From Torpedo marmorata (Eukaryota): a stretch of DNA of 64,000 nt. The stretch covers positions 7,006,001-7,070,000 of the forward strand of contig CDRNVU010000048.1 in assembly GCA_977017645.1 (NCBI GenBank). The letters are read 5' to 3'. Shown piece after piece: positions 11,007-48,856 of the stretch. The translations under genes were made by a program, and so were the position numbers. A model generated the notes under the pieces. The model was not told the DNA's origin and searched no databases. It saw only the letters and a list, made by a program, of their open reading frames with translations. Position 1 is the first letter of the stretch. Each line of letters begins with the position of its first letter.

Positions 11007-11076
11007 ATGAAACAGCCAATAATCGTACACGTGGAAAATATTTACTATCCTATTCTTGCAGCTTTTGGAGTTCCTG
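11007..11076 (+). CDS. GPR139/GPR142-like class A GPCR gene 1, coding exon 1 (MKQPIIVHVENIYYPILAAFGVP)
   Basis: ATG at 11007, 70 nt (23 codons + 1), donor CCTG|gtaagc at 11077. The phase-1 join to 13988 restores TM1 'YYPILAAFGVPANL'. Confidence 0.88.
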
Positions 11077-12159
11077 GTAAGCTCCCTATTATCATTTGCT
11101 GACGCTTTCAGAACTTTACCGTTTCGTCTGCAGCGTGCACACATTTTGTCCAGGATTTCCCACCGCTGTGATAGGCACAATGACGTTATTGTCTTAATCT
11201 GCAAAACGTACTGCTAATTAAAGCTAAAACCTAGTTCTAATGACTCCAGGCTGATTATCTATAGCAAATATAAATAATGAATAATTCAAATTATGTGTTT
11301 TAGCAGTTAATGGGGTTGTACAGTATGTGCCTTGAGAGACCGTTATGTGCAAAGGAAAAGGGAACGAAACCGTTTTTTCGAAAAGAGGACAGTCTGAAGT
11401 GTTTTTGAAACGCTGAACGAAATACCGTGTGTAATTGAATCAGTCTCGCCATTTCTGCATGCCCTATATACGAAATGACTGCATCTAAATACAGGAGACA
11501 ATAGGATCCACGACCTCTGCCAATGCAAGGTGCGCTGATGTCCTTCCAGAATGTACATTTGTACAGTCTTATGTGATGTATGCATCAATATTTGTGAAAT
11601 GCAAAGGGTCCATGTGAATTTATTGCGGGCGTATAACATATTCCTGCACTTTCTTCTTTGTTATACAATAAGTAGAATTCATTGGGTGGGATGTAAATAG
11701 TGGAGTTCAAATAAATTGAAAAAATACAATTCATGAAAATTAGCTGTCAAAACGCTCGTCCTTTTCTACCGTTGTCACATCGAAATTCGCCGTATCGTCG
11801 GCACTAACCTACAAAGGTGTTTCTCATGATCAGAAACCGATTCCAATCTGTGGTGTTTCATGAGTAAAGGAAAAGTTATTTCGTCTGATAATTTTTGTAT
11901 CTGGGGAAATTCTGTGGATCTTCTAATTCAAGAAAGTGATCCACGGATCCCATGACAGAACACACGTCTATGTTAGCTGTTATGCGCCTCACGTTCGGCA
12001 ACAGAGAGACGAAGCTGTAATTATATTTCTCAACACTGACCCCTTTTGCTCTTGCTTAAAAATGTTACGTCTACATTCTGCATAATGAATATCGAGAATT
12101 CGTTAGATACCTAAATCCAATTTGGTTTTTGTTTTTCCCAAGATATTTAAATTGACTAA

Positions 12160-12397
12160 TTTTTAAAAAAATTAGACATACAGCATGTTAACAGGACATT
12201 TCGGCGAATGAACTCGTGCCGTCCGATTACACCCAATCAACATAAAACCCCCGGTACTTTTCTAAAGGTCGGAGCAACCGAAGCCCCCAGGGAAAACCCA
12301 CGCAGACACAGGGAGAACGTACCAACTCCTTCCAGCCTGCGCGGGATTCGAACCCCAATCCCTATCGCTGGCGCTGTAACAGCTAAGCGTGCCGCCG
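12160..12397 (-). mobile_element. V-SINE (HE1-like), in intron of gene 1
   Basis: Reverse complement of the 1071-1314 family: 'ggaaaacccacgcagacacagggagaacgtaccaactcc' and 'gggattcgaaccc'. Confidence 0.85.
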
Positions 12398-12799
12398 TTT
12401 CTGCACATTTCGGCAGAAGGTACAGTCAACTACTTTAAAATTCGAAGAGTTAACAACTGTTCAGATATCGTCATCAATTTGTCTAAAATATTAAATGGAA
12501 TGCCTGTAGATTCACAATTCTAAGATTATAGATAGGATTCCGAAAGTAAGGTTTTGCCTTTGACTTAGATTTGATTCGAGGACAGACACTCTCGACATTT
12601 GTAAGAACTACTCAGTTAACAATTACTTTTTCCATGTTTTCAAGATTATTGGAATGTATAAGCAAGGGTTGGGGTAAATGTCTAGTAAGATCAAGGCTGC
12701 TTTGACTGTAACCGAAAGCAGCAATACCATTCAACTGTTGAGTGCCAAGTGCGTATTTCCTTACCCGCTTGGTACTTAACGGTCCATCTTTTTTTCTGA

Positions 12800-13420
12800 A
12801 AATCAAAACAACCGTAGATGCAAGAAATGAAAGACTAAAGGAGAAAATTCGAGAACAACTCAGTAGCGCAGTCCGTACCTGTGGGAGTGGAAGTAGAATT
12901 AACATTTCAGTTCGTAGTCAGTTCTTAAGAACGGGAAAAAACGGACATTTAAAAGTTGACTGAATCTACAGTGGGAGAGCGGGGGTGTACCTAACGGGAT
13001 GTGACAATGGAAGCCACGGAGGTACGCGGAGAATATTATAGTGACCAATTGTTGAAAAGAAGCAGTTAAGCAGAGAGAGGGTTGAATAACGATTTAGTCA
13101 ATTGCGAAAAACGGAGAAGAATGACGTGCCAATACGTTGGACTGGGCATGTCTTCCAACCCTGAAGTAATAAAACTGGAGTGGGATTTCAGATAACCTTG
13201 TTTCCTCGTCTGTGTCGTCCAACAACCCGTGACCTTAACTTAGTTTGCTTTCTCTGTTCTCATCCCTGCATGAAAGTTCAGGGAATATTCCTCGTGGGAG
13301 TATTCAGATGGTTGCGGTTGACATTTGAAACAAATATTGTAAGTTGGAAAATTTAATTAAAAATGTAGCAATGCTGCCTGATAACGACCGTCAACATTCA
13401 AGTTGAAATTCCGCGTTATA
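12800..13420 (-). mobile_element. Highly decayed Penelope-like remnant
   Basis: 'gtagatgcaagaaat...aactcagtagcgcagtccgtacctgtgggag...taacatttcag' resembles antisense Penelope terminal sequence. Very degenerate. Confidence 0.4.
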
Positions 13421-13602
13421 TCTATCTGTGTTTGAAATTTGGTGAGGTATTCTGAATTTGAAAATGAACTTCTCATTGACGAAAGAGTCGAATCTTCTCC
13501 TTCGAAACTATAAATATCGGCTGGTTTTAAAAGCAACACGAGGCAAGAAAAGCGACTCCCTGCTTCTGAGCGATAATACCTTGATTCAGAATATTTGAAC
13601 AA

Positions 13603-13837
13603 TTTTTTTTTAACATTTAGACATTTCGGTCCTACGAGTTCGTGCCGGCCAATTTACACCCATTAACCTACACACCCCGTACATTTTGAAGGTGGAAGGA
13701 AACCGGAGCCCCCGGAGAAATCCCGCGAAGACACGGGGAGAAGGTACAAACTGCTTACAGACAGCGCGGGATTCGAACCCAGGTCCGGTCCCGATCGCTG
13801 GCGCTGTAAAGGCGTTGCTCTCACCGCTAAGCCAACC
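13603..13837 (-). mobile_element. V-SINE (HE1-like), in intron of gene 1
   Basis: 'ggaaaccggagcccccggagaaatcccgcgaagacacggggagaaggtacaaact', 'gggattcgaaccc' and 'cgctggcgctgtaa'. Confidence 0.87.
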
Positions 13838-13987
13838 TTTAAATGTCTCTTTATTTGGCGCGACGAAAGATCAGCATATTTTCTCGACATAAAATAAATG
13901 TAATAATTCTAACATGTATCCTATGAAGAAAGCGCGATTGAGTGTCCTCTCACGTCAGTGTTTACGACTTTACATTTCCGTTTGCAG

Positions 13988-14895
13988 CTAACTTGATGGC
14001 GATTCTCATCCTCTCTCGTGGAAACTGCGGTTTGTCCAAATGCATCACCCGGTACCTGCTCTCCATGGCCGTCGCTGACCTGACGGTTCTCATATTTGAA
14101 GTCATTCTCTTTGAGATTAAAGATGGTTATTTCCCATTTTCCGTCCTTAACTATACTCCAATCTGTAGTCTCAACTTGACTCTGCTTTTTGATTCCCTTG
14201 ATTGCTCCGTCTGGTTTACAGTGGCGTTCACCTTTGATCGATTTGTTGCAATTAGTTGTCAAACATTACGAGTGAGATATTGCAACGAGAAAACAGCTGC
14301 TGTGGTCGTGACCGTGGTGTCGCTCGCACGCATTTCAGAAAATTCTCCGCTATACTTTATATATGAACTTCGAGAAATGATTAATGACATACCTTGGTCC
14401 TGTTTTGTTAAATCAAGCTTCTATACATTGCCCATATGGACAACATTGCTGTGGTTAGATACAATTTTAACGCCATTTCTGCCATTTACTTTGATTATGC
14501 TGCTCAACGCCCTGACTATAAGACACATTGTAATGGCCAATAGGACGAGGAGTGGCCTCCGAGGGGGAAAGAAGGTTGGGAATAACAGTGATCCGGAAAT
14601 AGTGAATCGCAGGAAATCAATCACGTTACTGCTATCTATATCTGGATCTTTTCTGCTGCTTTGGATGGTCATTTTTGTTTGTTTTATATCCGTGCATTTT
14701 TCACACAATACATTTTTGGAATCGAATTACAAGGACCCGTTCACCATTGCAGAACAATCCGGTTACATGCTGAGATGTTTGAGCTCTTGCACAAACACGT
14801 TTATATATGCGGTGTCCCAGAGTAAATTTAGAAATGAACTGAGAAAGATAATTATGCGTCCCCTGGAACTCCTTTGTGTTACAATAATGAAATGA
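13988..14895 (+). CDS. GPR139/GPR142-like class A GPCR gene 1, coding exon 2 (325 aa after splicing)
   Basis: Acceptor tttgcag| at 13987. Open to TGA at 14893-14895. Hydrophobic helices, MAVADL (TM2), DRF (TM3), TM3 and ECL2 cysteines, NTFIY (TM7), KFR helix 8. Confidence 0.93.
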
Positions 14896-15169
14896 AAGTT
14901 ATTCGTTTCACTCGTTTAAGAAGTATATTCCTAAATGTACAAACGTTCTGTCATTTAGATGCGCATACAGGAATCATCAAAGGAAATCTGAAATGAGCTG
15001 TGTTACGATGGAATAACATAAAATATGCTGAATGATCATTTTAATCGTGTTATTTCACGTCGATGCACGTCACCGCTACGACTGTTATCTTATGATCGCT
15101 GATGTTATTTAATTACTATTTGTTTAAGGCTAAGTACACAAGTGTGAGAGGATAAGTTCATTTCGTGTA

Positions 15170-18100
15170 TTTGTTTTTGTTTTTTTTTATATTTTATTTA
15201 AAATTTTAAATCACAAAATATATAAAGTAAAATATATGTATCAAAGTACTTGTGATACATTTTCACCCCCCCCCTCCCTCCCATCCCTAACCTTCCCATC
15301 CCTACTAAAGTAAAAATAAAAAAGACAGCAAAAGATAGAGTGAGGAGAATGTCAATTTTAAAAACACATCTATAAACTAATTTTATTGTGAAGGATAGGT
15401 TTGCCAGTCAGATCCGATGTCCAGAGATCTTCAAATCCTTAAACCAACAGCCTTCATATATGGGCTTCCTATTTTCAAAAAGAAATGATATTTATTACGT
15501 AAATTATAAGTATTTTTTTCAAGTGGTATTCATGAACGAAGTTCTGCATGCCATCTCTGTAAACCCTAAATCTACATCAGATTTCCATGTAATAGCCATC
15601 CATTTCTTAGAAACAGCAAAAGCAATTCGCAAAAATTATATTTGATACATATTTAATTTCATCTTAGTACTAACTCTTTTAATATCTCCAAACAAATATA
15701 TAATTGGGTCCATTGGGAATGTAATTTTTAACACTTTATCTAAAAACGTTTTAACTTTCAACCAAAAATCATAAACAATTGAACAAAACCATGTAGAATG
15801 TACAAAAGAACCTTCCTCTCTATTACATCTGAAACATAAGCCTGATAATGTCCCATTAAATTTCTTTAATTTTTAGGCGTTAAATATAATTGATGAAAAA
15901 AATTAAATTGAACTAATGTATATCTAACATTAATGATCTTCGTCATACTTAGTTTACATAATTCCTTCCAATGTTCTTCATCTATTGTTACATTCAAATA
16001 TGATTCACATTTTAATCTTGATTTATGAATTCATACTCCAGGGATTTTTCTCTGAAACAGTCGATACATTTGAGAAATACATTTATTTACACCTCCGTTA
16101 GTAACTAATAATTCTAGTTCACTCTGTCTTGGTAAAGTCAAACTATAGCCTAACTTGCCAACTAAAAATCCTCTCATTTGATAATAAGCAAAAAATGTAT
16201 TATTCAATACATTAAACTTATCTTTCATTCTTTGAAAAGTAATAAATTTACCAGCTTCAAAACAATCATTTATTTTCTTAATTCCCGTTTGGAACCATAT
16301 TTTAAATAATTGATTATCAACTGTAAATGGACGGAGTTTATTTTGATATAAAGGCATCTTTCGAGAAATTAACCCTTCCTCTCCTATCTCCCTATCCACT
16401 CTATTCCATATTTCTAACAAATGATTAAAAATAGAATAATTTTCCCTCTTATTAATAATAAGTTAGAATTCCATTTATAAATAACTTCTTCTTTCAGATC
16501 TTATCTGATATTATTCTAATCCAAGCAGAAGACATAGCTAAATCAAACAATTTATTAACAAATTTTAATTGAGCTGCTTTATAATAATTTTGAAAATTAG
16601 GAAGTTGCAAACCACCCATTTCATATTTCCAAGTTAATATCTCCATACCTACTCTAGCCAACTTTTCTTTCCACAAAAACGTCCTAATAATTAAATTTAA
16701 ATCTTTAAAAAAGTTCAAAGGGATTTCATAAGGAATTGATTGAAAAATATATTGAATTCTTGGAAAGACATTCATCTTAATACAATTTACCGTTCCTATT
16801 GAAGTAAATCCTTACAACTGTCTAAATCTTTTTTAATTTTCTGAAATAATGGTAAATAATTTAATTTATATAGATTAGTTAATTTTGTATCAATCTTTAT
16901 TCGCAAATATTTAATTCCTTCCTTTGTCTATTTAAATTGTGTAATTTCTTTACATTTACTCTAATCCCCTTGTGTAAATGCCATAATTTGACTTTTATCA
17001 GAATTAATCTTATAACCAGATATTTCCCCATATTCTCTCAATAAAACAGTCAATTGTATTAAAGAAGTAATAGGTTTTGTCATATAAATCAATACATCAT
17101 CTGCAAAGAAACTAATTTTATGCTCTTCTCTTCCAACTTTAATACTTTCAATCTTAATATCTCGTCTAATTAATTCTGCCAAAGGTTCTATTGCTAAAAT
17201 AAACAATGCTGGAGATAAAGGATATCCTTGTCTCGTTGATCTTGTCAAAGAAAATTTTGAAGAAATTTGTCCATTTGTCACCACTTTAGCAGATGGTTCT
17301 TTATATATAGTTTTAATCCAATTAATAAATGTAGTTCCAAAACCAAATTTCCCAAATACCTTAAATAAATAATTCCACTCTAATCTGTCAAATGCATTTT
17401 CAGCATCTAATGTTAATACTAATGCTAAATCCTCTTTCCTTTTTTTCCACATTAATCAGAATCAGAAATAAAATCAGAATTTATTGTCAAGAACAAGTCA
17501 TTCAATTCGGTGTGTTTTGGCAGCATCATAGTGCAATTAACATTCATATTAACCATCTTACGACATTACTATAAAAATTATAAACAATAGTGCACGAAAA
17601 GTAAGGCAGTGTCTTTGGTTCATTGATTATTCAGGAATCTAATGGCAGCGGGGAAGAACCTGTCCTTGTATCGTTGAGTGCTCGCCTTTAGGCTCCTGTA
17701 CCTTTTTCCCGATGGAAGCAGAGTGAAGAGGGCATGGCCTGGGTGGTGGGGGGTCTTTGAGGATAGAGGCTGCTTTTTTAAGACACCGCATCATGTAGAT
17801 GTCCTTGATGGAGTGAGGTTTGGCACCTGTTATGTCACAGGCCGGGCTAACAACCCTCTGGAGTTTACCCTTGTACTGGGAGTTGACGCCTCCATACCAG
17901 TAAGTGATGCAACCAGCCAGAATGCTCTCCACGGTACAACTGTAGAAGTTTACGACAGTCTTCGGTGACATACCGAATCTCCGCAGACACCTCATAGACT
18001 GCATCAACGTGGAGGCTCCAGGACAGATCCTCGGAGATGTTGACACCCAGGAATTCGAAGTTCTTGACCCTCTCCACTACTGAGCCCTCGATGAGTACTG

Positions 18101-18852
18101 GGTCGTGTTCCCCTGACTTCCTCCTGAAGTCCACAATCATCTCCTTTCTTTTGCTGACATTGAGCTCAAGGTTGTTGTCATTACACCATTCAACGAGCTG
18201 ATCTATCTACCTCCTGTACGCTTCCTCATTGCCGTTTGTGATTCTGCCGACAACTGTGGTGTCATCGGCAAACTTGTAGGTGGCATTGGAATTGTGCCTG
18301 GCCACACAGTTATGGGTATATAACGAGTGGAGCAGTGGACTAAGCATCAGGGTTAATTAAACTAATTAATCTAGCTATATTATCCTTTGAATATCTATTC
18401 TTAATAAAACCGGCTTGATCTACATGGATTAAATCTGGTAAATAATTAGCCACTCTATTTGCTAAAATGTTTGCCATTATCTTATAATCCACATTTAACA
18501 ATAAGATTGGTCTATATAATTCTGTTTTCAACACATCTCTATCTTTTCTAGGTATAACTGTAATTATTGCATTCGAAAATGTTTCCGGTAACGAGTGAGT
18601 TTCCGTTATTTGTTTAAACGCATCCATATATGGATGTATCAATAATTCTTTAAACTCCTTATAAAATTCTGATTGAAAACATTCTTCCCCTGGATATTTA
18701 AAAACTCGTTAAAGAACTAAGAACATCATTAACTTCCCTCATTGAAAAAGACGAATCTAAAAATTCTTTACTTTGTGTATTTAATCTCTGTAGCTGAATT
18801 TTAGATAGAAATTCATTAATTTTAGGATCATCTACATCAATCTGAGATTTAT
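15170..18852 (-). mobile_element. L1-clade LINE family A, 5'-truncated, interrupted by a Rex1/Babar insertion
   Basis: ORFs 16031-16420, 16494-16775, 16961-17452 (FADD) and 18340-18642 are collinear with the 3150-6420 copy. Poly-T tail near 15170-15190. Confidence 0.93.
17457..18351 (-). mobile_element. Rex1/Babar-clade LINE, 5'-truncated
   Basis: 'MIVDFRRK...ERVKNFEFLGV' and '[15 protein letters not shown]'. (aatcag)n tail. 'ttaat' duplicated in the host L1. Confidence 0.9.
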
Positions 18853-22993: not shown

Positions 22994-25900
22994 AATTTTA
23001 GGTAGAGGAAGCAGAACGGCAAAGGAGATTTCAGGCGGAAGAAGCAGAAAAAACAGGAGGTTTGAAGATAAAAGGAGAGTAGAAGAAAAAAACGGATGTC
23101 TGAAATAGAAATGAGAGAAATGGAAACTTGGTCAGATTTTGCAGAACTTGCAAATGAGAATGATATAAATTCATATCTTAAATTAAAGCCGTAAATCTTT
23201 TAAAAAGGGACAACATTCTGCTACATTTGCAGATGACAATCACAATGTGAAATGTGTACCCAATAAAATTTTTCAGAAGGTTAACATAAAGTACCAAAAT
23301 AAGGTAGAAAATAAATGGAAAATCCTTTTGGTTTATTTTGTGACTATTGTAAGAAACATGGTCATGTGGTAGAGAAATGTTTTTTCTTGAAGAGAAATAG
23401 AGAACAGAAAACAGTGCGAGATGCTTATATTCAAGGTGGTGAAAACCAGGGAAGTAAAGAAGGTAATTTAAAATACCCGAATAAGTTTGAAGCTGAATGG
23501 GCAATTGTATCCAGCAAAGAAAAGGCTGAGCAAACTGACAGAAAAGCTATGTTTAAAAATTTTGCCAGTGAAGAAAATTATGTACAAATTGATTTAAAGG
23601 GAATAAAAGCTTGTGAAATTCAACCACATGCACAAACAGAATTACCAGCACAGGAAGAAGCGGGCTATGATGACTCATCGGTCACTTTAAATGTTCCTTT
23701 GTTGGAACATAAGTCCAGAATTAAACTTGAAAGTAATGACTGTACACAGCAGATGAAAGTGGATTTGTCTTTTTTCAGAGAAAAGTTAATAGAGAAACAG
23801 AATAACGAAAAAGATATTGCTGAAATCATGAATACAACACTCTCTGATGAGAAAATTAAGAAAGTACCAGTTGGTTACTATTTTTAAAAAGTAATATTAA
23901 TGAGAAAATAGAGGTCAGTTGATATTACGCCTAATGAAGATTGGGGTGTTGTTCATCAGTTTGTGCTTCTTAAAGATTATAGGGATGAGATTGTAAAACT
24001 AGCCCATAGCACACTTCTAGGTTGGCATCTTGGGGTAAGGAAAACTACCTATAAAATTATGAAACAATTTTATTGGCCTAATTTAAGAAAGGATGTTAAT
24101 AGATTTTGTAGGACCTGTCGCACTTGTAAAGTTGTGGGGAAACATAATCAGAGTCCACCTGTTGCTCCTTTAAAACCTATTCCTGTTTTTGGGGAACCGT
24201 TTTCTAAAGTTATTGTGGATTGTGTTGGTCCATTGCCCAAAACAAAAGCTGGAAACGATTATGTGTTGACCATTATGTGTGCAGCTTCTAGCTTTCCGGA
24301 AGCAATACCACTTAGGAACATTAAAGCAAAAAATGTGCCTTGGCGTTTGGTGAAATTTTGCACTTCATTTGGTTTGCCGAAAGAGATGCAATCAGATCAG
24401 GGAAGTAAATTTATGTCAGGTGTATTTCAACAGTTAGCTTTTCAATTGGGAGCTAAGAAAATTACATCATCTACGTATCACCCAGAATCTCAGGGAGCTT
24501 TGGAGAGATTCCATTCGACTTTAAAAACTATGTTGAGGAAATATTGTTGTGAGAATGAGAAGGATTCAGATGGAGGTATTAATTTACTTTAATTTGCAGT
24601 AAGGGAAACAATACAACAACTGTTATATTTAGTTATTTTTAATTAGTGTTTGAACATGAAGTTAGAGGACCTTTTATGTTGATGAATGAACAGTGGTTTA
24701 ATGAGGATGTGCAGTTGAATTTGTGAGAGTATGTTTCGAAGTTCAAATATCGTTTACAGAAGGTCTGTAAGATAGCAAAGGAGAATTTAAAAATGGCTCA
24801 ATGTGATATGAATGTTTGGAATGACAGAAAAGCCAGAGGGAGAATACGTAAACCAGCCGATAAAGTGATAATTGATTTTACAACAACATCTGATCCTCTG
24901 AGAGAACAATTTTGAGGACCTTATTAAATAGAATCTAAGGTAAATGAAGTTAATTTCGTGGTTAAAACTTCTGATGGGAGACGTGAAAAACAGAGTTGCC
25001 ACGTTAACATGTTAAAACATTATTTTGAGAATCTGGATGTCAGCTGGAAGGAGCTTTCACAAGAGGTATTGATTGTTGAGAAAATTGAGGAGGTTATGGA
25101 TCATGCCGATCCCTGTGAGAGCCATTTTAAAGAGAACATTGTTCCAGTTCCTTTGCCTAATTTAAGTACATTGGAAAATTTAGATGAGATGTTGCTTCAT
25201 TTGAAACCTCAGGAAAAGGAACAAACTAAACAGTTAATTTTAAAATTCAAAAATTTATTTCCGGATGTGCCACAGCGAACTTCCATCGCTTGCCACGATG
25301 TTGATGTTGGAGATTCAAATCCTATCAAACAGCACCCATATAGAATGAATATTGATTGGTGTAAAAAGGTAGATCAAGAGATTGAGTACACGTTAAAGAA
25401 TAATATTATTAGACGTTCTACTTCAGATTGGAGTTCACCTTGCGTACTGGTACCTAAATCAGATGGGACAGTTAGATGTTTCACTGATTATAGAAAAGTT
25501 AATGCAGTGACAATAAAACAGATGCTTATCATATCCCAAGGGTGATTGATTGTGTGGATAAGATTGGAAAATCTACCTTTCTTCCAAAAATATAGATTTA
25601 TTCAAAGGTGACTGGTGTGTCCCTTTAACAGAAAGAGGAAGGGAAATTTCTACTTTTGTAACCACATCGGGTTTACATGAATACAATGTTTTACCATTTG
25701 GAACGTAGAATTCTCCAGGAACATTTCAAAGGACGATTAATTCTGTGAGTCAAGATTTGAAACATACAGATGCTTATATTGATGACTTGGTTACAGGGAA
25801 TGATACATGGGAAGAACACATCTCTGCGTCAGAGAAATTGTTTGAAAAACTTTTGAAAGCCAATCTTACTGTTAATTTAGCTGAAATTGAATTCTGTCAT

Positions 25901-26396
25901 GCTAAGGTGACTTTCTTGGTTATGTTGTTGGCCAAGGAAAAGTGGCACCTGTTCAAGCTAAAGTTCAGACAATTATTGAATATCTTGTACCCACGGGTAA
26001 GAAAGCTGTGGGGATATTTCAGGAATGGTTGGGTAATCCAGAATGTTCTGCAAAAAAATTGCAGAGATAGCCGTTCCTCTGACTAACCTTTTAAAGAAGA
26101 GTGACTATGATAATATTGACAATCCAGTGGCATATGTATCTAAGTAATTCAAGGAACACCAAAATGAATATTCTACTATTGAAAAGGCATTATTGCCTCT
26201 TGTATGGGCTTTGCAACATTTTGAGGTTTATATTTGCAATGAAATGAAACATATAAATAGACGGTAATTCAACTGGAGTTTAATTTTGCAAGATTATGAC
26301 TTAGTAATAACTCATATTAAAGGCAACGAAAATGTTATTGTTCATTGCCTGTCCGGATATTGAATATACGTTATTTCCGCAAGAATTTTTTTATCA

Positions 26397-27775
26397 GAAT
26401 CAGAATCAGAATTTATTGTCATGAACAAGTAATGAAATTCGGTATTTTGCGGCAGCATCATAGTGCAATTAACATTCATATTAACCATCTAACGACATTA
26501 CTATAAAAAAATTATAACCAATAGTGCACGAAAAGTAAGGCAGTGTCTTTGGTTCATTGATTATTCAGGAATCTGATAGCAGCGGGGAAAAAGCTGTCCT
26601 TGTGCCGTTGAGTGCTCGTCTTTAGGCTCCTGTACCTTTTTCCCGATGGAAGCAGAGTGAAGAGAGAGGGTATGGCCTGGGTGGTGGGGGTATTTGAGGA
26701 TAGAGGCTGCTTTTTTAAGACACCGCCTCATGTAGATGTCCTCGATGGAGTAAAGTTTGATGCCTGTGATGTCACAGGCCGAGTGATCAACACTCTTGGG
26801 TTTACTCTTGTCCTGGGAGTTGGCGCCTCCATACCAGGCAGTGATGCAACCAGCCAGAATGCTCTCCACTGTGCACGTGTAGAGGTTTACGAGAGTCTTT
26901 GGTGACATACCTAATCTCCGCAGACACCTCACAAAGTATAGCCGCTGACGAGCCTTCTTTGTGATTGCATCAACGTGGATGCTCCTGGACAGATCCTCGG
27001 AGATGTTACCACCCAGGAATCTGAAGTTCTTGACCCTCTCCACGACTGAGCCCTCGATGAGGACTGGGTCGTGTTCCCCTGACTTCCTCCTGAAGTCCAC
27101 AATTATCTCCTTGGTTTTGCTGACGTTGAGCTCAAGGTTGTTGTCGTTACACCATTCAACGAGCTGATCTATCTCCCTCCTGTACGCATCCTCATTGCCG
27201 TTTGTGATTCTGCCGACAACCGTGGTGTCATCGGCTAACTTGTATATGGAATTGGAATTGTGCCTGGCCACACAGTCATGGGTGTACAACGAGTAGGGCA
27301 GTGGACGAAGCACGCATTGTTGGGGTGCGCCTTTGATGATAATCAGTGAGGAGGAGACGTTGTTTCCAATTCGTACTGACTGTGGTCTTCCGATGAGAAA
27401 GTAAGGGATCCAGATGCAGAGGGGGGTACAGAGGCCTAGAGTTTGTAGCTTTTTCACCAGCACTGAGGGAATAATGGTATTGAAGGCCGAGCTGTTGTCG
27501 ATGAAGAGCAGCCGTATGTATGAATTGTTGTTTTCGAGGTGATCCAGAGCTGAGTGGAGATCCAGCGATATTGCATCTGCTGTGGAGCGATTGTGGCGAT
27601 AGGCGAATTGCAGTGGGTCCAGATCTTTGCTTAGGTATGTGTTAATTCTGGCCATGACCAGCCTCTCAAAGCATTTCATCACAGTAGAAGTTAGTGATAC
27701 TGGACGGTAGTCGTTGAGGCAGCCCACACTACTCTTCTTGGGTACCGGGATGATTGATGCCCTTTTGAAGCGGTA
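26397..27775 (-). mobile_element. Rex1/Babar-clade LINE, 5'-truncated, inserted in Gypsy 1
   Basis: ORF 26561-27820 with [22 protein letters not shown] and ADD. (aatcag)n tail. 'tatca' on both sides. Confidence 0.93.
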
Positions 27776-28843
27776 TATCAAGTTGTGTAAGAAATCTATC
27801 AAACAAATAGTAGATTGCAATTTAAAATTTGACCTCTTGGATGTTTAAAATCTTCTCCGTGGAAAGGAGCTGTAACGGATGTGGTTATGTTAATATTAAT
27901 ATTTAAAGTTAAGTTATAGAATTTTATATATTCGTAATGTTATTTCTGGGCTGGTACATGGTCACACACAGGTCACAGCACATTTACAGGAAAAAAAACA
28001 TTACTCAGAGAGAGAATTCAGTTCGGAGTCTAAGCGTCTGTGAAGAAAAAAAGCCATAAAACTGAAGTGGTTTTTCGTTGAAACTCAAGGACAATGGGGG
28101 TTGCTTCAAAGCATTTTTTGAGTACTTTCCGGAATCATAAACTTCTTAAGCCTCTTGGAACAGAGTTAATAAGGTCACATGGTTTCAAAGAAACTAGAGA
28201 TGTCAACTTTAAATATTCCAGGAAGTGGTCAAATGGTTTCCAATAATTCAGACTGATGTCATTGATGATGTAATGTCACATGATATCAGAGACCCATATC
28301 ATTGAAGAAATCAGACATTTTGAAACAGACAGAACCAGACTGTAGAAACTTTGGAAAGACAAAGATTGTGAAGCATTCTGAAGAAAATTGACTTCCTGGA
28401 AAGTCAGGATTTGAGCAGTGATCTCTGACTGGAGAGAGGTACTTTCTCTCTGTATTATCCTTATCGTAGCAAATACATAATAAACAGCTTTTAAAATAAG
28501 TAAGACAATTTTCAAATTGTTTCTTGGAAAATAGTACATCACAGTATGTTACACCAGATTAAAAAAGAAATCATTGTAAAGATTACAGTTCTGTAACCCT
28601 TACAAGATAGGGGGAAACTTTTGAAAACGGTCGTGTGAAGAAAAATATCGCTGAAAGACAACTGATCAAAAGACGTGTGAGTTAGAAAAAATTTGAATTC
28701 TGCACTTTTGCTTTATAATAACTTCTGAATTACAATTTAAACGGATCCGGAGGTTCAACAAAAGAAGTTCGAAACTGGCCATTAAATTTGAATTTTTCAG
28801 ATTTATGTTTAAACTGAAGTAGTTTGGACTTTAACACATACAC

Positions 28844-31800
28844 TGTAAGAGCCATAGGCTCTTTTCTTACCTTCGTCGCAGCGTTCCGATTGTCGCAGCA
28901 GGTGTCGGAGGAGTCGCGTAGTTTGATAGCCGTGCTTGGCTTATGACTACCCTGCACATGTGCGGGGGTGCCGACGTGCCCATGCGCAGTTGGTAGGTAG
29001 GTGGAGCATGCTCAGTGAGTATGCGCGGTGGAGCATGCGCGGTGGAGTATGCGCGGTGGAGCATGCGCGCAAATCGAAAAGATGTAATATAAAACATGGC
29101 GACGAAGAGGAGTGTGAGTGAGATCATTGTAGTTTTCATTGACCGCTAATAAGGAACGTTTATACTTCGTTATAAAGGAACGTTATTAGGAATCGTTATT
29201 AAGCATATTTATCAAGGATTGTTTATATTTCGTTAAAGATATTTAAGTTATTGAAGACTGAAGGATTTATTGAGAACCAGAGCGTAAGAGGTGTGAAGGA
29301 AGGGACTCCACTTTTGAAGACGTTGTACAATTTTTGGAATGGCATGTGGAAGTTAACACAATACTAGTACTTGGAAATATTAAGGATACTTCAACAGTTC
29401 CTAAAGACGTAAAGAAGACTAAATCATTGTTTCAACAGAAGCCAAAAGGAATTACCTTTGTTAATACTGTGTTAGATACAAGCACAGAAAAGAACAAAGA
29501 AGTAAAGGAAATGGAAGATCACACTGTTCAGAAAAGCTGTTTGTATTGCAAAGATATGCATGCTTCAGACAAATGTTCACGATTGGAGAAAAGGTCGCAT
29601 GATAAGAAATTAATTTTCTAAAGGAGTATGGAATATGTTTTGGCTGCTTGTGTAAAGGACACATCAGCAAAACTTGTAATAAGCGACTCACTTGTGATAT
29701 ATGAAATTTAAAGCATACCAAGTTACTGCATATTCAACGAAGTCAAGTTGAGAAGGAAGTCAAACAATCTGAATCTAAAACTAATGAACCAGCTTTAGCT
29801 TCGGTTCAGACAAACAGTCTTACTGGGGCCGGTGACAAAGCCCTCTCAATAGTTCCTGTACAAGTTAAAGCTAAAAAATGTAACTTCATACTGAAGACCT
29901 ACGCATTGCTTGTACTATTGAATTAATGAACAAACTTAATCTTAATGGAAAAAGATCACAGATCTTATTGAAGACAATGAATGATGAAAGAAACATTGAA
30001 ACAAATATAGTTTCAGGTTTAGAAATTGCTGGATTAAATAGCAATCAATTTTGCGATCTTCCAAGTATATATACTCAGAAGACTATGCCTGTGAATAAGG
30101 AGAATATTCCATATCAGGATGATATCAAACAGTTGGCTTATCTAAAAGATGTTTGCTTACCTAAGATTGAAGCCAAGATCGATATGTTAATTGGATTAAA
30201 TGTTCCAAAAGCTCTCGAACCTCAGGAAGTAATAAGGAGTCAAACTGACGGACGTAATGCTGTGAGAACAATGCTTGGATGGACAATTAACGGGTCATTA
30301 GGAGGAAAGATGAATAATGATCAGAAGACGTTGAACGTAAAAGTCAACAGAATTTCAGTTGTGAAATTAATGATATGTGGGAACAACCGTTTAAAATTGA
30401 TTTTCCTGAATGTCTCACACATATTCAAGAACCTTCAAAGGCGGACAAGCAGTTTCTGGATTTAGTTTCAAATTCTGTTAAACATATTGATGGTCATTAC
30501 TGTATAGCATTACCTTTGATGAAAAGAGAAGTTTGCATGCCAGATAATAAAATAGTTGCAGAACAGCGTATGCTGAATTTAAAGAGAAAATTCAAGAGGA
30601 ATTCTTCCTTTCATTTGGGATAGGCAGATGTCATGTTAGACATGATAGCGAAGGGTTATGTAGAAAAGGTATCAGAAGATATCTTGGAAAATAAAGATGG
30701 CAATAAAATGGTATTTACCTCATCATGGAGTTGTACATGCACAAACTAAAAAAACTACGTATCGCTTTTGATTGTAGAGCATCATTTCAAGGGGTTTCAT
30801 TAAATTCTCAACGTCTACAAGGTCCAGAATTAACCAGTACTTTAATAGGTGTTCTGATAAGATTTTGTAAAGAATCTATTGTAATTGATGCAGATATTGA
30901 AGCGATGTTTCATCAAGTAAAAGTACCATCAGAAGATCGTAATTTGTTACGATTGTTGTGGTGGCCTAATGGAGATTACAATGAAGACATGATTGAATAA
31001 AGAATGGCAGTTCATCTATGTGGAGCAACATCGTCACCGAGCTGTGCAAATTGTGCGCTCAGAAAATGTGCTAAAGAAAATGAAGAAAAATTTAGTTCTC
31101 AAGCCATAGGCATCATCAAGAGTTAAAGTAGATCTGTAATAAAGCAGGTTGCATCCTTATGAAATGGATTAGCAACAGTCGAGATGTGTTGGCTGTTATT
31201 CCTGAAGCAGAAAGAGCAAAGGAGATAAAACATCTTGATTTCGATTGTGACATTCTACCCGTCGAAAGAATTTTAGGGGTACAATGGTGTGTTCAATCTG
31301 ATGTTTTCAAATTTAAAATTGTTTTGAAAGAACGGCCTTTAACAAGAAGAGGTATTCTTTCGATAGTAAGTTCAATATATGATCCTTTAGGAATATTGGC
31401 ACCAGTAGTATTAATAGCCAAGAGAATTCTGCAAGAATTGTGCAGTAGAAAATTGGAAGGGATGAAGCTGTACGAGAATTCATTGCACAGGATTGGATAA
31501 ATTGGATTGAGAGTCTTAAAATGTTAGAAAATTTTGAAGTCAACAGATGTTTGAAACCAAACGAATTTGGAATTGCCAGCCATGCTCAGTTACACCACAT
31601 TGCTGATGCAAGCGAAGGTGGTTTTGGTACTGTCAGTTATTTAGTACAACGAAATAACCAAGAGCGAGTACAATGTGTATTGGTAATGGGAAAATAGAGA
31701 GTGGCTCCATTAAAGCCAGTCACCATACCTCGTATGGAATTAACTGCCGCTACTATGGCGAACGAAATGGACACAATGTTGAGAAGATAATTACAGATGG

Positions 31801-34881: not shown

Positions 34882-35832
34882 TCAAGAAAGACAATCAACA
34901 ATTACATTATCTCTCCCTTTTATATGAGTGATTACCAAATTATATTCTTGTAAAATTAGACTCCAATTCAACAACCGTCGATTCTTATTTTTCATTTTAC
35001 AAAGATAAACCAATGGATTATGGTCAGTATACACTATGGGTGGTTTTTGAGCTGTGCAGATATACACATCAAAGTCTTGTAGAGCCAACACAAGAGCCAA
35101 CAACTCTTTCTCTATAGTTGAATAATTCCTTTGATGATCATTGAACTTCTTCGAGAAGTAGGATACCGGATGGTCAATGTCTTCTTCGTTCTTCTTCTGT
35201 AACAGCACCGCACCCACAGCTTCATCGCTCGCATCCACGGCTAAAGAAAACGACTGTTTTAAATTAGGTGACTTAAGCACAGGTTGGTGGCATAACATGG
35301 CTTTCAATTTGACAAAGGCTTCCTGACAACCTGTTGACCATACAAATTTCTCTTTCTTTCTAAGCAAATTTGTGAGAGGGGTCGCAAGATCAGCAAAGTT
35401 TTTACAGAACTTGCGGTAGTAGCCAATCATTCCCAGGAACCTCCTCAGAGTTTTCTTACCAGTTGGAACAGGGAACTCGGAAATAGCGACAACCTTTTCC
35501 TCTACTGGCGCCAACTGCCCCTGTCCTACTACATAACCCAGATAAATAACAGTAGCATGTCCAAACTCACCTTTACTTAAATTAACTGTGAGTTTTGCTT
35601 TGGACAGTCGTTCAAACAATTGTTTTAGCTCAAAGACATGCTCTTCCCAGGTCTCACTACTTACAATTAAATCATCAATGTAAGCACCTATGTTTTTCAA
35701 CCCTTGAATCACTGAATTAATCATTCTCTGAAATGTTCCTGGAGCATTATTCATACCAAAAGGCATAACATTATACTCATAAAGCCCAAAAGGTGTTACG
35801 AATGCAGAAATCTCCATAGCCCTTTTTGTCAA
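34882..35832 (-). pseudogene. Gypsy 2 pol: RT C-terminal half and RNase H
   Basis: MPFG, YIDD, YLGY, FLGMIGYYRKF, DAS, YSTIEKELLAL and TDH motifs. Confidence 0.92.
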
Positions 35833-35856
35833 AGGAACACACCAGTATTCTTTTAA

Positions 35857-37323
35857 TTAGTCAATTTTTGTAAGAAATCTGGCCTTCCCCACGTTGTCTA
35901 TACAATCGTCTATTCTAGGAATAGTATAAGCATCTGTCTTGGTTACAGTATTTACTTTCCTATAATCAGTACAAAACCTAACCGTTCCATCAGGCTTCGG
36001 CACTAGAACACAAGGAGAACTCCAATTGGAAGTAGACTTTCGAATAATATTGTTCTTTACTATGTAGTCAATTTCCTGATCTACCAGTTTGCACTTTTCC
36101 GCATTGATTCGATAGGGATGCTGTTTTATCGGTCTTGCATCTCCTACATCCACATCATGATAAGCGATGGAAATTTTCTGAGGCACATCAGGAAATAAAC
36201 TTATAGATTTTAAAAATAACGGACTCATCTCTTCCTTTTCTGAAGTTTTTAGATGAGACAACCTCGTCTCCAGATTGCGCAAAATCATGGAATTTTCTAA
36301 CCTCGGGCTTATCAATTTCTGTGTCCCATGACCCTCTCTGAAACTGGTTTCATCCGTCTCCTCCTTACCCTGATCAATAACCAGTACCTCTGGTACATTT
36401 TCAGTCCCTTTGTGTGGCACCTGTTCAAAATATGGCTTAATCATATTCATATGACAGACCTGTGTGTCTCCTCTGCGATTAGGTGTTTCTATGACATAGG
36501 TGACATCATTAATGATTGACTTAACTCTATAGGGTCCTGAAAATCTAGCCCTAAGATGATTTGAAAGGATGGGAAACAGAACTAATACGTTCGCACCAGG
36601 TTTAAAAGTTCCCATCTGCGCCTTTCGATCATACCAAACCTTCATTCTCTGTTGATTGGCCTTTAAATTCTCCTTTGCCATCTCACAAGCCCTATGTAAC
36701 TGATCCTTAAATTTGGAAACATAATCTAACAGATTTAAATGCACATCACGATTAATCCACTGTTCTTTTAATAATCTTAAAGAACCTCTCACCTCATGTC
36801 CGAAAACTAATTCAAATGGACTAAAACCAAGTGAGTCTTGCACAGTCTCCCTCGCCGCAAATAACAACAAATGAACCCCATCATCCCAATCCTTTTCCTT
36901 CTCACAACAATAGGTTCTAATCATGGTTTTGAAAGTCGAATGGAACCTCTCCAAGGCCCCTTGACTTTCTGGATGGTACGCAGAGGATACAATCTGTTTA
37001 ACTCCTAGTCCATCAACCACTTGTTGGAAAACGCCTGATATGAAATTACTGCCCTGATCTGATTGAATTTCCCTTGGCAAACCTACCAAGGTGAAAAATT
37101 TTACCATAGCCTTTACAATTGACTTTGCTTTTATGTTTCTCAGAGGAATGGCCTCTGGAAATCTGGTGGCTGCACACATAATTGTTAACAAATACTCATT
37201 CCCCGCTTTGGTTTTGGGCAATGGGCCAACACAGTCCACAATTACTCTCGAGAAAGGCTCACTGAAAGCAGGGATAGGATGCAAGGGTGCCACCGGAGTA
37301 CCCTGATTAGGTTTACCCACCAC
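35857..37323 (-). pseudogene. Gypsy 2 pol: integrase core followed in frame by RT N-terminus
   Basis: VDCVGPLP, SDQGSNF, YHPESQGALERF and GPY, then PIKQHPYR, WSSP and RFCTDYRKVN in the same ORF. Confidence 0.93.
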
Positions 37324-38326
37324 CTGACAAGTGTGAAATGCCCGGCAAAAGCTTACAACCTCCCTTCTCTAACTGGGCCAATAAAATTGTTTCATTATCT
37401 TCCTTTAAGGTTTCTTCACCCCAAGATGAACACCTAAGGGTGTACTATGAGCCAAAGTTATTATTCATATCTATATACTTTAGGGATCACAACCTGCTGC
37501 ACTACTGCCCATTCTTCATTGGCAGGAACATCACGTGGTCTCCACTTCCTCATCAACACCCCATCTTTTTCATAATAACCTACTGGCACCTTTTTAATCT
37601 CCTCTTCAGAGAGAACTTTATCCCTCACCTCAGCAAGATCAGGATCGTCCTTTTGTCGGGATAGTGACAAATCTGTGCCTTTAGGTGTCTTATCAGTGGC
37701 TGGGTCTAACATAGGAGATAGCTCAAACTTTTCCAGATTTTATTGATTATCAGTGTCTTTTCCTTTCACAAAGTTATTTTCCACTGCCTTCTCTACAGTG
37801 GCATTTTTCTTAGACATGGCCCTGTTTATGGCACATGCCGGATAAATATCAGAGTCTTTCTCTGACTTATCAATGACTGGCTTAGTGGTCATTCGCACTG
37901 CAGGAACTACTTTACCCTTTGCCAAGTCATTACCTAACAACAGTGAGACTCCTTCTACTGGCAACTCTGATTTCACTCCTATTATAACTGGTCCTTCCAC
38001 CAAGTCTGATTCCAATACTATTTTGTGCAAAGGAATGGACTCTACCTCACCACCAATTCCTTTAATTAAATTTATGTCACCGGTGTCAGTAGCTTCGCAA
38101 AATTCCAAGACACTATCTAACACAAGTGACTGAGCAGCTCCAGTATCTCGCAAGATTTTCCCTGGCAGTTGTTTTGATCCTGACTTAACTGAAACAAAAC
38201 CATCAGTCACAAAAGGTTTAAATACATCTTTAACTTTGTCAGTAAATTTATCTCATTCCTGGGTGTTATACATCTTCTCACTCTGAATACAAGCATTAGG
38301 TGTTGCATCCTTTTCTCTCTTCTTTT

Positions 38327-39010
38327 TCAACACTGGACAGCTTGCTGGCATATGACCAACCTTCCTACAGTGGTGGCAAATTGGACCCGAATTGTTTTCC
38401 CTTTTCCACTTTCCTTCATCCCTTTCCTTAACACCACTTCCAAATTTACTTTCCACTTGCTTCTGATTATCCACCGTGACATTTTGGAAAATTCTACCTG
38501 AGGCTTGTGGGTTAAAGCATATCCATCTGCCAACTTAGCTGAATTTTGCCAAGTGTTCACCTCCTTTTCATCTAAGTATGCCTTAATATCCTCAGGAACA
38601 CAACTTTTTATCTCCTCGATTATTATTAATTCTCTCAATTGATTGTAATGATTGTTTACTTCCTTAGATGTGCACCACCTGTCAAAACACACAATCATTT
38701 CATAGGCAAACTCTGTATAAGATTGGGTTGCTGATCTTTTTAAATTTCTAAACTTCTGTCTAGAAGCGTCTGGAACTAACTCATAAGCCTGGAGTATAGC
38801 CTTTTTCACCGTTTCATAATCAGCAGCTTGCTCTGTGGTAAGAGTACTATAAGCTTGCTGAGCTTTTCCTTTTATTACACTTTGTAACATAAGAGACCAT
38901 TGGTCTTGTGGCCATTTTAATTTCACAGCCACCTTCTCAAAATGTTGGAAGTACTTATCTATTTCTGCCTCCTCCAATGGAGGAACCAACCTAACTTCTC
39001 TACTAGCCAA
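38327..39010 (-). pseudogene. Gypsy 2 gag capsid with SCAN-like region
   Basis: 'YFQHFEKVA..WP..W...L.GKAQ.AY...YETVKKAILQAYELVPDASRQKFR' and 'LRELIIIEE', typical of Gmr1 gag and SCAN. Confidence 0.8.
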
Positions 39011-39553
39011 AACCCCTCAGCAGGATGACGAATTTGATCTTGGCGCTCTTCTTGTCTCCTCTCATTTTCCAACTTTATCTTTTCCAGCATATATATCCTA
39101 TTTTCTCCTCGTTCTCTAAGTCTAATCTCTTTTGTTCCCTGGCTACCTCCAATTCTAATTTCCGTTGTTCCAATTCCCAGTGCTTTTGTTCCAATTCCAA
39201 TTTCTTTATTTCCAACTGTAAGTTTTCAGAAGGTTTACCCTTGGGAAACTGCTCTAACACGCTCTCCTCAAACTTTTTTTCTTTTATATAGTATTTGACT
39301 ATTTTTCTCCCAATCTTTGCCTCTTTCATAGATGGTTTTACAGAAGCAATGCCCAACTCTGTTGCTATAGCCACTAACTGTTCCTTTTTCGCCTTTTTTA
39401 AAGTATCAGGTTCAGGTGATTCCAAGAAATGTTCTACATCCATTGTTGCTGGTTTTTCGTTACACACACACTAGCTTTTAATTAGCTATACAAAAGGAAT
39501 GCCTTAAACCAAACTGGGATTCCTTCAATTACCAAGATGGATTTTGATTCAAA

Positions 39554-44900: not shown

Positions 44901-44953
44901 ACCTCAAGCTGGTTCCCAACACTAACAGCTCTCCCGAGTCCGAAGCACCTCGG

Positions 44954-45425: not shown

Positions 45426-45609
45426 TTTTCTATTTCTTCTGCTTAGTATATCATGAACGTGAGTTTCAAAGACATTGAGTAAAATTGCTTGGTTGTGAGA
45501 AAGATAACTTTCAAAACAATCTTCAATATTTTTAATACGCTATCGTGTCCAAATCCTGGAAGATTGGTTGTCTATAGAAAATGGAATAAGTCTATTCTGT
45601 ACCAAAGGT

Positions 45610-46208
45610 GTCGTCATTGACAATAAATTTTAGAAAATAGACTAATTAAATAATTACCGAAATTAATCCATATGAATCAGAAAGGTTTTGTAAAAAACTC
45701 GACTGTGAGTAGATAATGTCGCAAGATTGAATAGCTTAATCCATGTAGCTCAGAAAAAGGGAAATTTAAGTCTGGCGGTGGCCTTGGATGCAGAAAAGGC
45801 ATTTGATAGACTTGAATGGGAATTTTTGTTTAAAATCTCGGCTAATTTTGGTCTGGGACAGGTCTTTATAAATTGGGTTAAGGCATTATATAAAAACCCC
45901 AGACCGAATTTTGTGACAAATTGACAAGTTTCTGTACCTTTTCAATTGACTATGTCAAGTAGACAAGGCTTCCCTTTATCGCCAGCTTTGTTTATTTTAG
46001 CGATAGAATCCTTAGCTGAATTAGTACGGTCAGATCCTGATATTCAGTGTATTAAAGTTAATCGACCGGAGTATACAATAAATGTATTTAACGACGATGA
46101 CTTGATATATTTGACTAATTCCTTGAATTCCTTCCGCCAATTACATTAAAGATTGGTGGAATATGGTTAATATCAGGTTATAAAATTAACTGGGATAAAA
46201 GTGAACAA
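45610..46208 (+). mobile_element. L1 RT fragment
   Basis: 'ALDAEKAFDRLEW', 'RQGFPLSP', 'FNDD' and 'SGYKINWDKSE'. Confidence 0.9.
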
Positions 46209-46555
46209 GATAACTTTCGAATCTGTGTATAAATCTAACCCTTTCGAGTCCGTGTCCATATTTTCAGTGACTACCAACAAGCGCATATTCTCCGTGTCCT
46301 GGTTTACAGGGACTATCAACAAGCGCATATACTCCGCTTCCCCGTTTTTCGGGATTATTTTTATACCGAACCACCAGCTGGTTCGTAATGGTGTTCGCAC
46401 TGTAGTTTACGCATGGACTGAGCACGGAATTGATCTTATCAAAGGTTAAGAATGGAAGGAAACCAAAGGGATAATTATGTTGCCTGACAGTATTCCTTCC
46501 CCGATCGTGAACAAGGATCGTGTTCAGGTGGAAAATGTGAAATTATGTGACACGT

Positions 46556-47508
46556 TCACCCGCGCGGGACACACTGCCTGACCTTTTCAACAAGCATGTT
46601 AACGGGAGAGAGCAGCGCAATCATCAGTTGCTCTCTGAATTTTCTCTGGGTCACTCCGTAAATAAAGGTGTTGGTGCAGCAGCTGAAAAGCTGAATCACA
46701 GACCCCGCCATATTTGCACGATAAAGGCGTATGGACGTCTCCAGGTCCGTGTAGAGGCAGCGTATGAGAATGAAGACCACGGTGGTTGGCGCCCAGCAGA
46801 GAATGAAACTCGCCGACAGGGTGAAGAGCAGAATGATGGATTGTTTCCGGCTCTCCATCTCCGGGTCCCGTTGTTTCTCGGCGTGTCTCTGCCCCATGAG
46901 CCTCCTGCGGACTCTGCTCGCCGCCACTATCTGTCTGACGGTCAGAGCATTGAGGGTTAAAATGATGAAGAAGGGAAGCAGCGGGTTCCATAGGCGGTCG
47001 ATCCAGTAAAGCACCTCAAATGAATCTGTCATCGGAAGAACGAGTCTCCCGTCACACACCCAATCACCTCGTCCTGACACACGTGTTAAAGTCAAATGCA
47101 TGAAATAAAAAGGGACGTTTTTTAAACAGAATGCGATACATATTGTACCAATAACCACACTCGCATTTTTTGGAGTGCAGTATTTGGTTTTGATCTTCGG
47201 CCAGCAAATGGCCACGAAGCGATCGAAGGTGAAAGCGACCGTGAACCACACGGAACAATCAACAGCGACGTAACACAGGACATAGTGAACAAGGCAGAAT
47301 GGAGCTTTGTCAAGGAGGATGAATATTTTGTATAAAATTGAATCATCATCCGCCCAATAAAATCGGTATGCGTTAATCACCCGATAGAGCAGGACTTCGA
47401 TAATCACCACCATGAGATCCGCCACCGCCATCGCCACCAGATAGCGAGTGATACACTTGGAGAGTCCACAGTTTCGTCGGCTGAGGATGACGATTGACAC
47501 CAGGTTAA
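46556..47508 (-). CDS. GPR139/GPR142-like class A GPCR gene 2, coding exon 2 (335 aa after splicing)
   Basis: Acceptor ttgtttcctcag| then TT AAC CTG. Open to TGA at 46558-46556. MAVADL, DRF, CWAP, NTFIY and KFR motifs. Paralogous to gene 1. Confidence 0.93.
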
Positions 47509-48801
47509 CTGAGGAAACAAATTAACAGTAACATTATGAATAATCATCGAAGACACTGGAGGAGAAAATAAGGAATCGGCTTCGTAAATAGCCTTTAATA
47601 TATACATCCAGCCTTTAAAAAGCTGAGCTACTGTAACATTTCAAATCTATTCATTCGCGTGTTACCCATTCTGCGCTTTCAAACGATATTTCACGCCTGT
47701 CCGTGCAGGATGAGAGCCGCCACAAGGATACATCACCAATGTGGTGACAATCAGTGGATTTAATTCTGTATGCTGAGAGGAATACGCCGGCAGCATAGTG
47801 GGAAGTATCACAGATATCTTCCTGAGATCGCGTTGTGAAGTTTCTCATCACCCTGAGACTGTGTCCGTCTGTTTAATTCACCATCTCCCACACAAGTACG
47901 GTAACTAACCGCTGATATTCCATTTCAGTCATTGTCCTGAATAAATACACAGACTGCGACGCAGTGCTCTCGACCATCTGAGAAGTATTGTGATATTTAT
48001 TTCAATCATTCGGAAGCGATACCAAGGATTGGCCACAACTGCAAGTGCTATAAACACTCAAAAGGTGAATCTGAAGGAAGCCAGATAGAAAAATAAATGA
48101 TCGACCTATTTTACCCTGAATAAGAATACAAAACCAGACTTTTGTTATAACTATTGCTGATGATATTATTCGACAGATAATCACAGACTGTTCAACTTCA
48201 ACAATTTATCAATGGGAACTACTCTGGTGCCAGAAGACGAACCCCGTATGAGAAGGAGAAGCAGGGGAGACGACGACTCACGGGACGGTGACCACGATGC
48301 GGTCATGTACAAATTCCGCAGGGTTCTGTCCACACCGGACTAATTCGGAGTAACTCTATGACTGTTTGAGAATCCATCTGGGTGATAACGTTCAGTGATG
48401 CGGACATGGGATGTTTGAGCTCACTCGCTGCATGTTTGAGACACGAAAAAGACGCGTGAATCCTTCAAATATTTAAGAGTGATCGCACCTCAGCACCCGA
48501 CAATTGTGGGAACAGATCCGAATTTCCGTGAAAATCCCCGGACAGTCCCCTAAAACTGTGCACATCAATGAGGATAAATGTGAACCGCCAACTTCTGCTC
48601 TATGCTCAGCGTAATGAATGAGTTCATTTTGAAAAATACCTCATGTCACATTGGGAGAAATATACAGCGATACCACCAGTAACGTGGACGAAATGGCAAC
48701 CACAAATGACGGCTCAAATACACGAAACACAATGGACACATCACCAGGAACAGCCTGACCTCGGAGTTCCAAACAATTACCCGGTGGCGGGACATACTTA
48801 C

Positions 48802-48856
48802 CAGGGATGCCGATGACTGTGATAAGTGGGTAAAGCACATATGTGTACGAAGTCAT
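48802..48856 (-). CDS. GPCR gene 2, coding exon 1 (MTSYTYVLYPLITVIGIP)
   Basis: ATG at 48856, 55 nt (18 codons + 1), donor CCTG|gtaagt at 48801. Same intron position and phase as gene 1. The frame is open upstream to about 48949, so the true start may be earlier. Confidence 0.82.

Follow-up and report, generated by a model that had tools for sequence, protein, structure and literature searches.

The 64,000-nucleotide stretch of the Torpedo marmorata genome analysed here (GCA_977017645.1, contig CDRNVU010000048.1, positions 7,006,001 to 7,070,000; hereafter the window) contains two genes, A and B, that belong to a single GPCR (G-protein-coupled receptor) clade with about 5,400 loci in this genome, multiplied by duplication and under positive selection on the ligand face in two of the three subfamilies tested. 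We regard it as very likely that this is a giant, diversifying receptor family. A chemosensory role for the family, as judged from its sequences, we consider about evenly balanced.

Genes A and B and the size of their family

Gene A, on the forward strand, consists of exon 1 at 11007-11076, which holds the ATG, a short N-terminus, the first half of transmembrane helix 1 (TM1) and a phase-1 GT donor and is matched by homologues, and exon 2 at 13988-14895, which runs from TM1 through the stop codon. Gene B, on the reverse strand, has exon 1 at 48856-48802, with a phase-1 GT donor, and exon 2 at 47508-46556. As described in an initial annotation of this DNA, the two genes are intact and mutually convergent: each has two exons and a GT-AG intron of phase 1 positioned after G-x-P in TM1, and neither of the spliced products (325 amino acids for A, 335 for B) has an internal stop. 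Both proteins matched Pfam 7tm_1 and carry DRF as their DRY-type motif, which places them in class A (rhodopsin-like). The structure work rests on an alignment-based model of gene B, which showed seven helices at a predicted local distance difference test score (pLDDT) of 88.9 (the single-sequence version reached only 41.7); a fold search with this better model returned generic class A receptors, with GPR139 at rank 11 and not singled out.

The two proteins are identical at 130 of 321 positions (40%), with identity reaching 69% in the inner helices and 86% in intracellular loop 1 (ICL1). It falls to 31% in the outer helices and 12% in the extracellular loops (ECL1 31%, with an extra 12-residue insert in gene B relative to A; ECL2 8%; ECL3 0%), as expected from the earlier description of the ligand-side regions as barely alignable. 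The same annotation had claimed near-identical intracellular and core motifs, and all six motifs did align, but ICL2 (22%), ICL3 (33%) and the C-terminal tail (28%) are divergent, so that the conserved part comprises ICL1 and the inner helix halves. The very short N-termini it had pointed out are also present, the N-terminal exon encoding 18-29 residues in family members; however, they are no marker of a sensory role, since the single-copy relatives P0214 and P0229 have them too.

We searched the 6.22-Gb genome with both proteins. For gene A, the best 131 of 8,565 candidates comprised at least 31 full-length copies with an identity of 92% or above, gene A counted among them, and all 126 scored matches of gene B (of 8,383 candidates) were at least 88% identical. 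Because these searches saturate, exact motif matches were used for the family count. A TM3 motif gave 5,381 genomic matches (reversed control, 0) and an independent TM7 motif 5,443 (control, 35); an earlier TM7 pattern, with 3,811 matches, missed a large subfamily and was superseded. The TM3 and TM7 patterns recovered 64 and 65, respectively, of 65 loci known from the protein search, and the counts are therefore lower bounds on assembled loci. The initial annotation had proposed an expanded family evolving by birth and death, and this was supported at a far larger scale, with about 5,400 loci by two motifs, clusters and pseudogenes rather than a few paralogues in one-to-one orthology.

Only 50 of the 5,381 TM3 matches lie on contigs C1-C31, and the next 50 occupy the first 2.24 Mb of contig C39, at about one per 45 kb. 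Among these 50 consecutive C39 loci, exon 2 was open in 40 by length (95% interval of the open fraction, 67-89%) and in 35 under a stricter motif test (56-81%); both figures are given because the strict scripted test scored five open frames as broken, and for most loci openness was judged on exon 2 only. Grouping the 35 open loci at 95% identity left 34 clusters, and grouping them at 60% left 7. Of the hand-picked loci on C1-C31, 7 of 20 were open. Extrapolated from the one C39 cluster, the genome would hold about 3,800-4,300 intact genes.

Convergent A and B genes, 26-39 kb apart, were also seen together on at least nine further contigs (C83, C89, C90, C91, C94, C111, C131, C140 and C281), which demonstrates real segmental duplication, and over 10 kb a block of C140 matches the window at 99.7% identity. 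A pure haplotig artefact was rejected, as ten copies of the module cannot be two haplotypes and four single-copy relatives each occur once in this genome. We also rejected an origin of the count in transposons alone, given that only the 50 motif matches mentioned above lie on C1-C31, where dispersed fragments were seen.

Three further observations concern the arrangement of family members. On C140 (L141, L142), identity to the window is 99.7% for the A block and only 95.8% for the B block, the closest B copy being on C94, a pattern suggesting that duplicated modules have exchanged segments in mosaic fashion. Truncated pieces of one family member, covering TM2-TM4 and scattered over C1, C2, C5 and C22 (L081-L085 and L096), sit within an element whose long tandem-repeat arms are inverted at its two ends; this is probably a non-autonomous DNA transposon with a captured receptor piece. 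Finally, an early-branching, L105-type subfamily that is invisible to the TM3 pattern forms a dense tandem array on C80 (14.1-16.7 Mb), with most of its genes on the same strand.

Phylogenetic position, ligand pocket and selection

Gene A had 1,844 relatives at E ≤0.001. Of the 120 listed, the 114 with names were all from sharks or rays, mostly as 'probable G-protein coupled receptor 139', with at least 26 from horn shark and at least 29 from sevengill shark among them, and the closest among the matches listed was an electric ray protein (82%). This automatic RefSeq name misleads. In single-sequence matches, human GPR139 scored no better than oestrogen, vasopressin and opioid receptors. A profile of 52 family sequences, compared with solved structures, placed GPR139 first (E 7e-23; next, 9e-16; chemokine receptors, about 1e-15), and this closest human receptor by profile has the position and phase of the TM1 intron in common with the family, which assigns the family to the GPR139/142 superclade in the broad sense. 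It resembles GPR139 and GPR142 additionally in its class A fold and W6.48. It differs from them in forming a separate clade at 21-23% identity, in lacking R6.51 and in having thousands of copies against one each, and the alignment shows a TM3-ECL2 cysteine pair in the family but none in GPR139. The true GPR139 is a single gene on C56 (L101/L102; E 2e-161 to PDB 7vug), and a GPR142-like gene, also single, lies on C53 (56%). Genes A and B are 22-23% identical to this GPR139, and orthology to GPR139 was rejected.

In our main tree (63 rows, 321 columns, maximum likelihood under LG+G4, midpoint root), all 31 family rows formed one clade with support of 96/91. Its sister was an amphibian gene (100/99); next came a single-copy group of jawed vertebrates, sharks among them, and GPR139/142 lay outside these. 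A quick tree of 96 rows was concordant, with a sturgeon protein joining the amphibian branch and a chimaera protein falling inside the family; by these sequences, the family is one clade found across sharks, rays and chimaera. Gene A grouped with shark and ray proteins and gene B with a catshark protein, so that the A/B split is older than the split of sharks and rays. The amphibian gene (the P0229 group) comprised 20 clusters with no species label occurring twice, and its best match in this genome was the family itself (34%), with no separate copy among 119 scored matches. It shares with the family a short N-terminus and motifs in TM3, TM6 and TM7, and it differs in being single-copy and in its near-invariant pocket, as described below.

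No olfactory receptor (OR)-, V1R- or V2R-specific Pfam domain was present in the 52 members, in which only 7tm_1 passed threshold; no long class C N-terminus was found, and TAARs, which have no Pfam entry of their own, were absent from the top 60 PDB matches of the family profile. Family-specific domains thus gave no indication of membership among the ORs, V1Rs, V2Rs, T2Rs or TAARs. The nematode srw receptors are a chemoreceptor expansion from the invertebrate clade of SPR/MIP, proctolin and FMRFamide receptors, and Atlas neighbours of the present family carry Srw on 16-74% of their members, with sub-threshold Srx matches in 5 of the 52 family members. Unlike the srw and srx receptors, the family is an independent vertebrate expansion, and invertebrate-like rows lay outside its clade in the tree. 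GPR139 itself has been linked to this invertebrate clade (PMC12208981).

Among the single-copy relatives, the P0229 group is an unnamed orphan GPCR, conserved in frogs, salamanders and caecilians and present in sturgeon, whose charged pocket (R2.61, D2.62, K6.51, K6.55, E6.58) hardly varies. It may be one of the GPR210 subtypes, GPR210A and GPR210B being fish and coelacanth relatives of GPR139/142 described in a study that covered no sharks (PMC6504862). Another single-copy GPR139-related orphan, L104 (C25:87688474-87689367, reverse strand), has an open exon, keeps E3.32, F3.33, H5x43 and R6.51 with T at 6.48, and belongs in the tree neither to the family nor to the coelacanth-type group. The coelacanth-type single-copy receptor of this genome is L169 (C45:108057461-108058195); its match spans only residues 105-344 with one internal stop, and the gene may be disrupted or contain a further intron.

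We examined 17 pocket positions set in advance from GPR139 contacts (PMC8807744, PMC5430874). Activation of GPR139 requires a basic residue at 6.51 (R244; PMC8807744), which is kept in GPR139, the GPR142-like gene, L104, all 20 rows of the jawed-vertebrate group (LAT) and all 22 amphibian rows, where it is K. In gene A this residue is I and in gene B it is T, and none of 29 and none of 22 family rows had a basic residue there. The Trp/Phe site of GPR139 consists of F3x33, H5x43, W6x48 and N7x38 (PMC5430874); the corresponding residues are F, D, W and Y in A and Y, D, W and S in B, which do not reproduce it. A GPR139-like amino-acid-sensing pocket is accordingly not supported for this family, GPR139 and the GPR142-like gene being separate single genes. 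Pocket identity exceeded overall identity in single-copy groups (96 vs 76% among amphibian orthologues; 79 vs 57% in the other group) whereas within the family it was the lower of the two (61 vs 84% among paralogues of subfamily S1; 21 vs 44% across the whole family). The 22 S1 genes have nine different residues at 3.33, seven at 5x43 and seven at 7.39; apart from the tryptophan, these three are the sites on which GPR139 depends for Trp/Phe.

Selection was evaluated with our own GY94 code, whose M0 likelihood agrees with IQ-TREE, on open-frame genes of three subfamilies (S1, B-type and A-type). In S1 (22 genes), the ratio of nonsynonymous to synonymous substitution (dN/dS, omega) was 2.03 in the pocket (likelihood-ratio test statistic, LRT, 30.4) and 0.33 in the inner helices; the comparison of M2a with M1a gave an LRT of 74, two of three gene thirds remained significant with their own trees, and random sets of outer-helix codons equalled the pocket signal in only 0.14% of draws. 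In B-type (15 genes), the loops rather than the pocket were affected (loops 1.72, LRT 24.5; pocket 0.61; inner helices 0.20), with 9 of 11 selected sites extracellular and all gene thirds significant. Selection was thus not uniformly purifying, and the proposal of a conserved signalling face with a variable ligand face was upheld for the S1 pocket, the B-type loops and the constrained inner helices, but not for the A-type genes, which gave no such signal.

Other features of the window

A decayed third family member, overlooked in the initial annotation, lies at about 6806-7185 on the forward strand, as a relic from TM5 to helix 8 with two stops and a frameshift; many family members detected it by tblastn (26-31% identity, E down to 8e-6). 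The spacer between A and B (14896-46555, no strand assigned) is rich in retroelements. Fragments of retroelement open reading frames, at 3552-6099, 16031-18708, 23315-31500, 34882-39470 and 54211-63925, fill the array spacers, and we take them, from their motifs, to be LINE-type reverse transcriptases and Gypsy-like and BEL-like integrase/pol pieces. A possible promoter of gene A, at 10831-10940 on the forward strand, combines a homeodomain-type site near 10831 with a TATA-like box at 10931-10940. Across the upstream regions of 10 genes of 22 loci, a homeodomain-type site occurred in eight and a TATA box in five. As the motifs were chosen after viewing the sequences, and in 10 of the 22 loci, we treat the promoter signal as a lead only.

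Weighing of explanations and meaning

On the explanation that we prefer, A and B are two old subfamilies within a GPCR repertoire of chondrichthyans. This repertoire grew out of a single orphan receptor in the GPR139/142 superclade, which amphibians still carry as one copy and which also occurs in sturgeon. Segmental duplication in this genome has raised it to its present number of loci, most of them, by extrapolation, with open frames, while the inner helix halves and ICL1 were kept constant and, in two of three subfamilies, either pocket positions 3.33, 5x43, 7.39 and 7.43 or the outer loops were pushed to differ. Different members would then bind different ligands and all signal into a common G-protein pathway (for GPR139, coupling is to Gq and Gi; PMC8807744), and the outcome would be a combinatorial detector for small molecules or peptides from outside, most likely sited in chemosensory cells of the nose, the skin, or the mouth and gill epithelium. 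In genomic terms, the family resembles the OR, TAAR, V1R, V2R and T2R repertoires in its dense clusters, birth-and-death turnover, pseudogenes and diversified pocket on a constant core; it differs in its root within the GPCRs. In number it is level with or above the published vertebrate maximum for ORs, 2,514 complete genes, cartilaginous fishes having 20-62 (mean 43.8; PMC10869828). We tentatively suggest, at somewhat less than an even chance, that it would add a seventh to the chemoreceptor families of vertebrates, one descended from a GPR139-related orphan and standing beside the few V2Rs of sharks, rays and chimaeras, and in this genome the largest vertebrate chemoreceptor repertoire known.

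Several observations weigh against this explanation. A partner at 99.5% identity or more exists for 29 of 58 near-copies, so that some may be alleles; retained haplotypes cannot inflate the count more than twofold, which would leave about 1,900-2,150 intact genes. In the 29 near-identical A-type genes, omega was 0.55-0.92 and exceeded 1 in no class, neither pocket nor loops gave a signal, and the M2a signal vanished when the gene was split in thirds. When the B-type loops were allowed their own synonymous rate, their omega dropped to 1.47 (p 0.03), and recombination signals, which can inflate omega, were detected in S1 (p 0.018) and A (p 0.002). The O/E site occurred in none of the ten upstream regions. 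In passages that did not look for this family, the top 50 brain and olfactory genes of catshark include no GPCR (PMC11979771), and the receptors demonstrated in the shark nose are V2Rs (PMC10116579).

It is possible, although we think it unlikely, that the family is an innate-immune repertoire, with receptors on granulocytes or barrier epithelia that detect microbial or parasite molecules. Formyl-peptide receptors and the zebrafish NLR expansion are parallels, and the very recent amplification at the species level, the mosaic of near-identical blocks and the positively selected ligand face are all compatible with conflict between host and pathogen. C/EBP-ATF/PAR-type sites upstream of three of the ten genes agree with this, but ETS-type sites were found in one of ten upstream regions against five of ten intron controls (both post hoc), and chemokine receptors stand well behind GPR139 in the profile comparison. 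A germline or reproductive role, in which ampliconic receptors of testis or sperm were amplified through sexual or meiotic conflict, appears very unlikely to us: the large near-identical amplicons on unplaced scaffolds recall ampliconic testis genes, but the deep subfamilies are common to sharks, rays and chimaera, and selection focused on the pocket suits diversity of ligands better than dosage.

A distinctly improbable alternative is a modest, ancient functional core whose other copies are mostly near-neutral recent duplicates or partly retained haplotypes, with frames open through youth. The omega of A-type genes, below 1 in all classes, would fit such a history, as would the repetition of the whole 33-kb A-B module on many contigs, one copy being 99.7% identical over 10 kb, and the 20-30% of sampled loci that are broken. 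However, S1 (84% mean identity) and B-type hold their inner helices at omega 0.2-0.33 with the ligand face above 1, ten module copies are incompatible with two haplotypes, and four single-copy relatives were each found once. Least credible, and in our judgement extremely unlikely, is that the family consists of duplicated sensors of the GPR139 type for Trp/Phe or for a single endogenous peptide. Among solved structures, the family profile matches GPR139 best, and the TM1 intron agrees in position and phase, but R6.51 is missing in all family rows, H5x43 and N7x38 are absent from A and B and rare across the family, and the true GPR139 is a separate gene at 22-23% identity.

We found no description of the family in a literature search, most subscription journals lying outside its coverage. 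GPR139 goes unmentioned in the main texts of the zebra shark, catshark and whale shark papers (PMC10620051, PMC11979771, PMC8455134), and likewise in one zebra shark supplement file (PMC10620051) and 12 of 24 whale shark files (PMC8455134). Family members are nevertheless already in RefSeq under their automatic name, and their number is visible to anyone counting. A giant birth-and-death receptor repertoire is of a known kind; what is new here is the root and the extreme size. Cartilaginous fishes are reputed to have keen olfaction (PMC10116579), and the whale shark paper describes them as comparatively poor in GPCRs (PMC8455134). Here, one GPCR clade occupies about 5,400 loci under the name 'probable GPR139', and selection acts in it on pocket positions employed by GPR139. 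Through the single-copy amphibian gene, the ancestral ligand may be approached in the laboratory, and this gene makes a good target for ligand discovery. If the family is immune, it would constitute a very large repertoire of innate sensors; if it is sensory, the account of shark and ray chemoreception would change, and vertebrates would gain a receptor family.

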